Source: a virus (taxonomy: Duplodnaviria; Heunggongvirae; Uroviricota; Caudoviricetes). From it: DNA of 16,498 nucleotides. Within the stretch, counting starts at the first letter, position 1; every line of letters starts with the position of its first letter. A program made the position numbers and the translations under genes. The stretch is from positions 1 to 16,498 of IMG/VR virus record IMGVR_UViG_2737471837_000012; one strand, 5' to 3'. Positions 16,163 to 16,498 of the stretch are shown piece after piece. Below the pieces are notes generated by a model. It was not told the origin of the DNA and did no database searches. It saw nothing but the letters and a program-made list of their open reading frames with translations.

Positions 16163-16498
16163 TTATGGCCTGTGTCGTTTTAGTCCGTAGGGGCATATTT
16201 GCAGAATGCAACGGTTATTAAAGCATTCATTAAATACGTTATCTGAATTTGCAGGGCATTCCTGGCTGTTTTTGATTAAATCCCAGAATCTTTTATTGAA
16301 TGGTACAACGTTGTAAATGGTTACAGGTAGCACTTTGTTATTGAGTACGATACCTGTGTGAGTCAGCGTAAATATACTTTCAGGAGGTAAGAAAACATCC
16401 GATTGATACCAGATTATTAATTTTATTTTACTCCATATGGCTGAAAAAGATATTCCACATGATGGCTGGATAACTGTGTCAATCACAATCCACTTCAT
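16163..16498 (-). CDS. Hypothetical protein, AT-rich, possibly truncated at the window edge
   Basis: ORF runs to the last base of the window; the ATG at the edge may not be the true start. No recognisable motif. Confidence 0.3.

Follow-up and report, generated by a model that had tools for sequence, protein, structure and literature searches.

The window analyzed here is the whole stretch of 16,498 nucleotides, which by its sequence is a phiP27-like prophage; positions 1–13245 match phage phiP27 with 95% identity over 63% of the query. The first feature is an integrase gene (1–1314, minus strand), followed by early and replication genes, the genes of DnaB (11595–12986) and RusA, and the gene of a DUF1133 Q-like antiterminator (13597–14145). 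An AraC-family regulator gene (14386–15129, plus strand) comes next; its best NCBIfam matches are to YdeO, at 147 bits and thus short of the equivalog cut-off of 348, and to GadX. Directly after it lies a terminator-like hairpin (15154–15173, plus strand), which coincides with the left edge (about 15166) of a block that is shared with other prophages at 99.8% identity. The first gene of this module encodes a TerB-like protein (15315–15740, plus strand; PF05099, E 1.6e-7, 32 bits against a cut-off of 24.4), and the second encodes a small membrane-like DUF3927 protein (15737–15901, plus strand; PF13064, E 3.3e-16). They are followed by an STnc100-family sRNA gene (15943–16118, plus strand), which matches the full Rfam model RF02076 (positions 1–206) with 93.7 bits against a gathering threshold of 47 (E 3.1e-20). 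STnc100 has been listed as prophage-associated and related to PasD (2026 preprint).

The last gene of the window, at 16163–16498 on the minus strand, is a complete coding sequence (111 amino acids plus stop), the product of which belongs to the IraM/IraL family and is predicted to be an RssB anti-adaptor of the IraL type. In related loci, the next genes to the right are those of the holin, the lysozyme, and Rz, sometimes with a DUF1737 gene before them. Late transcription must cross the anti-adaptor gene in the antisense direction to reach the lysis genes, and the anti-adaptor gene is divergent from the holin gene. An arrangement that is antisense to the late operon and divergent from the holin is the usual layout of a moron expressed in the lysogen. 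In phiP27, tRNAs and stx2e are found in the slot that separates the Q-like antiterminator from the holin.

The preliminary description of this DNA had reported an ORF of lower GC content at the right edge, convergent to the TerB-like operon and lying beyond a terminator, and all of these points hold. In the six-frame ORF list and its translation, the ATG is located at 16498–16496, the final three bases of the window, and the TAA at 16165–16163; the translation ends in two stops. The ORF has a GC content of 36.3%, whereas the window averages 46.4% and the TerB-like and DUF3927 genes have 52.1% and 53.3%, respectively. The terminator, detected both by a terminator scan and by direct reading, is a GC-rich intrinsic-terminator-like hairpin, GCCCCTCTCCTGAGGGGC, followed by TTTTT (16096–16113, plus strand); it is in fact the 3′ end of the STnc100-family sRNA and also ends the TerB transcription unit. 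On the minus strand this hairpin lacks a T-run and thus does not obviously terminate the anti-adaptor mRNA. Because the sRNA gene and the anti-adaptor gene are convergent, the stop codon of the latter lies about 45 nt from the sRNA, and no T-run follows the hairpin on the minus strand, the two transcripts could overlap.

The same description suggested that the ORF may continue past the window and that it could be either further cargo or the start of another module. No complete E. coli genome searched covered 80% or more of the window; the best partial match among them, L006 (CP057154.1), is 99.89% identical over 6336 bases and extends the sequence to the right. There, a TAA is the codon directly 5′ of the ATG, which closes the ORF, and a good ribosome-binding site, AAGGA, precedes the ATG by about 7 nt. 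The gene is located in a cargo slot of the prophage, with the Q-like antiterminator on one side and the lysis genes on the other, as the first of the two suggestions would have it; it opens no further module, being the last gene of a mobile block of TerB, DUF3927, sRNA, and iraL, to the right of which the holin and lysis cassette follows.

The length of the ORF alone is weak and only modestly unusual evidence for a gene, since 134 of 5000 shuffles (2.7%) of the last 600 bases of the window contained 111 or more consecutive codons without a stop. That the ORF is a genuine gene rests instead on homology and on the signature of purifying selection in its sequence. By megablast, the last 599 bases have 100% identical stretches in E. 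coli chromosomes, in which RefSeq annotates the same 336-nt ORF. The dN/dS ratio was 0.14–0.18 in comparisons with K-12 iraM, the Stx2c-phage homologue, and a third subtype, and 0.36 against iraL of uropathogenic E. coli CFT073, so that purifying selection on the anti-adaptor gene is indicated across the range of 0.14–0.36.

A homology search with the full protein overturned the earlier view that its function is unknown. The exact protein is RefSeq WP_038813346.1, named "anti-adapter protein IraM". It matches the NCBIfam model NF007393 (IraM) with 163.9 bits against a cut-off of 121, residues 1–110 aligning to model positions 1–113/114, and its residues 1–78 align to the IraM chain of the IraM-RssB complex (PDB 8TWD) with an E value of 6e-33. 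An AlphaFold (AF2) model built from 16 family members has a pLDDT of about 78–92 over residues 1–80, with six to seven strands within residues 2–66 and a helix at 69–77, and a disordered tail at 82–111 with a pLDDT below 50. In a Foldseek search, the best PDB match of the model was 8TWD_A (TM 0.90, rmsd 1.2 Å, 67% identity to IraM), and the next were the PmrD structures 4HN7, 2JSO, and 2RQX (TM 0.70–0.73, 14–19% identity). The predicted fold of residues 1 to about 78 is thus a PmrD-like antiparallel beta-barrel with a flanking helix, and IraM itself has been described as PmrD-like (PMC10844676). A Pfam-A scan returned no match for the window protein even at an E value of 10, and likewise none for K-12 IraM, whereas precomputed annotation tables assign PF11183 (PmrD) to every member of the IraM family. 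Because of these table entries, we treated the blank scan as a gap in the library; the discrepancy looks like a matter of library version or threshold rather than of biology.

The closest characterized relative is IraL (c1429) of CFT073, which acts as an anti-adaptor of RssB in the log phase. IraL has been shown to bind RssB and to raise both the level and the stability of RpoS in this phase (Hryckowian et al. 2014, PMC4045071). An increase of its mRNA or protein has also been seen in a fur mutant and after a temperature shift to 37 °C. The two proteins are both 111 amino acids long, are identical at 99 of 111 positions (89%), and share a four-residue C-terminal extension relative to IraM; their genes are 93.75% identical (21 differences in 336 nt). 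The gene layout is also common to both, with an antiterminator, DUF3927, a reversed anti-adaptor gene, and a holin in a lambdoid prophage. They differ at 12 residues, namely A20V, V35A, V51M, R70T, D73N, A83T, S85T, F89L, I98T, R108Q, H109Q, and R110S, seven of which fall in the C-terminal tail. Their prophages differ as well. CFT073 iraL was found in a lambdoid prophage adjoining potC/potD, which corresponds to the "potB genomic island" of Hryckowian et al., whereas the window gene belongs to a phiP27-like prophage, the homologue of which in strain GB089 is located at a yecE-like DUF72 gene and not at potC. The CFT073 protein has 66 residues identical to K-12 IraM, which fits the 58.9% published for IraL (PMC4045071). 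All iraL matches reported in 2014 had at least 95% nucleotide identity (Hryckowian et al., PMC4045071), and the window gene, at 93.75% to CFT073 iraL over the coding region, falls narrowly below this value. By sequence, iraL is still by far its closest subtype.

The residues through which the protein would act are well preserved. In the IraM-RssB crystal structure, 15 IraM residues, forming clusters I–III plus Pro66, have been reported to be in contact with RssB (PMC10844676). At these positions the window protein is identical to K-12 IraM in 11 cases and conservatively substituted in the other four (T13S, L75I, H63N, I64V), and it is identical to CFT073 IraL in all 15, none of the 12 differences falling there. 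[quoted passage not shown]

The same positions bear on the idea that the protein is a PmrD-like connector acting on another response regulator, for example by guarding phospho-PmrA, instead of RssB. PmrD, which protects phospho-PmrA, shares the beta-barrel and helix fold, as the matches to 4HN7, 2JSO, and 2RQX and the PF11183 assignment indicate, and it is likewise of small size and binds to a response regulator's receiver domain (PMC10844676). However, its identity to the window protein is only 14–19%, compared with 67% for IraM in 8TWD, its target is different, and it is devoid of a Cys-rich tail. Considering also that the RssB-contact positions are conserved and that the protein is 89% identical to an RssB-binding IraL, we regard action on a regulator other than RssB as hardly credible.

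The C-terminal tail was cut from the crystallized IraM and has been described as less conserved (PMC10844676). In the window protein, residues 81–111 are encoded by positions 16163–16258 on the minus strand, and the cysteines are spaced as CP...C....C....CP. Residues C81, C92, C97, and C102, together with P82 and P103, were invariant in the 14–16 family members aligned (61–94% identity). The four cysteines are thus invariant although the tail has a low pLDDT (<50) in the model, and on this conservation they may form a metal or redox site. The seven differences from IraL in the tail were counted against the reading of the gene as a functional IraL-type anti-adaptor.

Neither the promoter nor an rssB gene is present in the window, and the promoter was therefore examined in related genomes. 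Over about 93–95 bp upstream of the ATG, there are four differences from CFT073 iraL (about 96% identity); the promoter of the iraL subtype was defined by at least 96% identity to CFT073, to −100 from the transcription start site (Hryckowian et al. 2014). The likely −10 element, TATACT, is conserved between the upstream region in L006 and that of CFT073 iraL, and if +33 is taken as the end of the leader, transcription would start 7–8 nt downstream of this hexamer. In L006, the similarity to the iraL upstream region ends at about 95 bp from the ATG, whereas it continues in another related locus (L013); distal regulatory sites may be missing, as the match in L006 stops at this point. No meaningful alignment was obtained with the upstream region of K-12 iraM. 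In L006, the 172-bp intergenic region that separates the holin gene from the ATG contains no PhoP-box-like site with three or fewer mismatches, and such matches across the whole L006 locus are at chance level (27 found, 26.6 expected). PhoP control of the K-12 type is thus unsupported. AppY, a prophage AraC regulator, was also considered as an activator and set aside, because the paper on AppY reports no up-regulation of iraM by it. As the promoter core is of the CFT073 iraL type, expression in ordinary growth is likelier than induction by Mg starvation.

The gene could also be silent or decaying cargo, that is, an intact ORF that is not expressed in its prophage context and contributes nothing. 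Such a fate would fit the short upstream match to iraL in L006, the location of the gene between Q-like antiterminator and holin, where it runs antisense to the late operon, and the occurrence of IS insertions and pseudogenes in neighboring prophage copies. However, the reading frame is intact and has a good ribosome-binding site, the selection is purifying, 712 blocks of the large assembly collection list the identical protein, and the proximal promoter, including the likely −10 TATACT, is conserved with that of CFT073 iraL, which is expressed. We therefore consider silence or decay improbable.

Compared with IraL, the other family members are more distant. K-12 IraM (YcgW/ElbA, b1160) matches the same family model, NF007393, with the same predicted fold and the four C-terminal cysteines, and is 64% identical to the window protein without gaps over 107 residues. 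Its gene is different in that it is PhoP induced, has about 70% nucleotide identity to the window gene and an unrelated upstream region, and adjoins the cryptic prophage e14. The IraM-like ORF of the Stx2c phage 2851 encodes a protein with 76% amino acid identity and also lies reversed in the slot between Q and holin, but it is 107 amino acids long, neighbors stx2 instead of TerB and DUF3927, and has a different upstream sequence. In phage 2851 (FM180578.1, 24242–24562; positions 5001–5321 of locus L004), this ORF is located just downstream of stx2cB in the reverse orientation. ORFs of this kind are present in many Stx2c and Stx2a phage records and are unannotated in most deposited Stx phage genomes. 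Another member of the family adjoins an LpxR gene and a nanS-like (DUF1737/SASA) gene in the slot. The reversed ORF L27 that follows stx2eB in phiP27 was considered as a degenerate IraM and ruled out, being unrelated by comparison.

The right end of the window is shared among prophages of different kinds. Positions 15166–16498 are 99.8% identical in four lambda-like prophages (L001, L007, L008, and L010), which carry other Q and terminase genes. Because this identity is found on different prophage backbones, we conclude that TerB, DUF3927, the sRNA, and the anti-adaptor travel together as one block of about 1.4 kb, a size that includes about 95 bp upstream of the anti-adaptor gene, which are shared and lie outside the window. 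The DUF3927 gene adjoins the anti-adaptor gene in all 10 loci fetched and also adjoins iraL in CFT073, and wherever the surroundings of the identical protein were shown for the assembly collection (10 of 10 places), it occupied the slot between antiterminator and holin. Strain GB089 (NZ_CP013663.1) carries the identical anti-adaptor gene together with TerB and DUF3927 in two prophages (L001 and L003), of which one is lambda-like and adjoins potC, and the other is phiP27-like and adjoins the yecE-like DUF72 gene, with an IS66 insertion upstream. A search for distant members of the family found four places in the GB089 record.

A member of the family is present in 4758 of 5426 complete E. coli genomes. 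When the genomes of this set were sorted by their best match to the window allele, the identity was at least 99% in 16, 95–99% in 11, 90–95% (the band expected for canonical iraL) in 1415, and 60–80% (the iraM type and the Stx2c-phage type) in 3328. Judged by these identities, the window allele is rare among complete E. coli genomes. Identical or near-identical copies came from ground beef, bovine feces, lettuce, crow, pig, animal-source food, and one human.

Every context of the IraM family that was inspected, namely the window, the CFT073 prophage, the Stx2c phage 2851, the P0018 loci, and K-12 iraM beside e14, is either a late-region slot of a prophage or a site beside a prophage. This location raises the question of whether the phage itself is the beneficiary; the biochemistry on RssB would be unchanged, and the tuning of RpoS and ClpXP would affect how lysogeny is maintained or when induction occurs. 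The strong induction of K-12 iraM by replication stress (PMC11228462) points in the same direction. However, nothing in our analysis ties IraL or IraM to phage decisions, and the published phenotypes concern RpoS levels of the host (PMC4045071), and we thus find a benefit of this kind to the phage quite improbable.

We suggest that the gene very probably is a functional IraL-type anti-adaptor carried as cargo (a "moron"), the product of which binds RssB and protects RpoS from ClpXP in the lysogen. The comparisons show an intact gene, its place in the family, the predicted fold, the conservation of the interface positions, the similarity of the promoter, and the genomic setting; RssB binding, RpoS stabilization, and the timing of expression of this allele are what we infer. 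The protein would be made in the lysogen from its own promoter just beyond the window, divergent from the holin gene, and probably during normal growth, as is the case with iraL. Its N-terminal PmrD-like beta-barrel (residues 1–78) would bind RssB, the response regulator and adaptor of ClpXP, and thereby block the delivery of RpoS (sigma-S) to ClpXP, so that RpoS would accumulate and the general stress regulon would be raised. During induction, the position antisense to late transcription could lead to silencing of the anti-adaptor gene.

A standard annotation pipeline already gives the gene a name, and IraL, its closest relative, is a characterized protein. As far as can be read from the comparisons above, it is a complete, already annotated anti-adaptor gene of the IraL/IraM type and ordinary prophage cargo, a rare allele of an anti-adaptor that is already known, and it carries little weight on its own. 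A broader interpretation is that the slot holds a co-selected stress-hardening cassette composed of the YdeO/GadX-like AraC regulator, TerB, DUF3927, the STnc100-family sRNA, and the iraL allele. The EvgAS acid-resistance cascade has been described as having two arms, YdeO-GadE and PhoPQ-IraM-RpoS (review, PMC11825808). The cargo of the prophage includes one relative for each arm, the AraC-family regulator and the IraL-like gene. If there were such a cassette, divergent iraL alleles from animals and food could explain the high log-phase RpoS of STEC isolates that are iraL negative by PCR. It is also a possibility, on the conservation of the tail, that the four invariant cysteines serve as a metal or redox switch on the stability of the anti-adaptor. 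Taken jointly, the cassette, the explanation of the STEC isolates, and the cysteine switch are speculative, and we consider them doubtful.

The right end of the window can be described as predicted RpoS-stabilizing cargo of a phiP27-like prophage, located where related phages have their Shiga toxin genes. Rare alleles of this kind could alter the RpoS content of growing E. coli associated with animals and food, which bears on the acid and stress survival of these bacteria.
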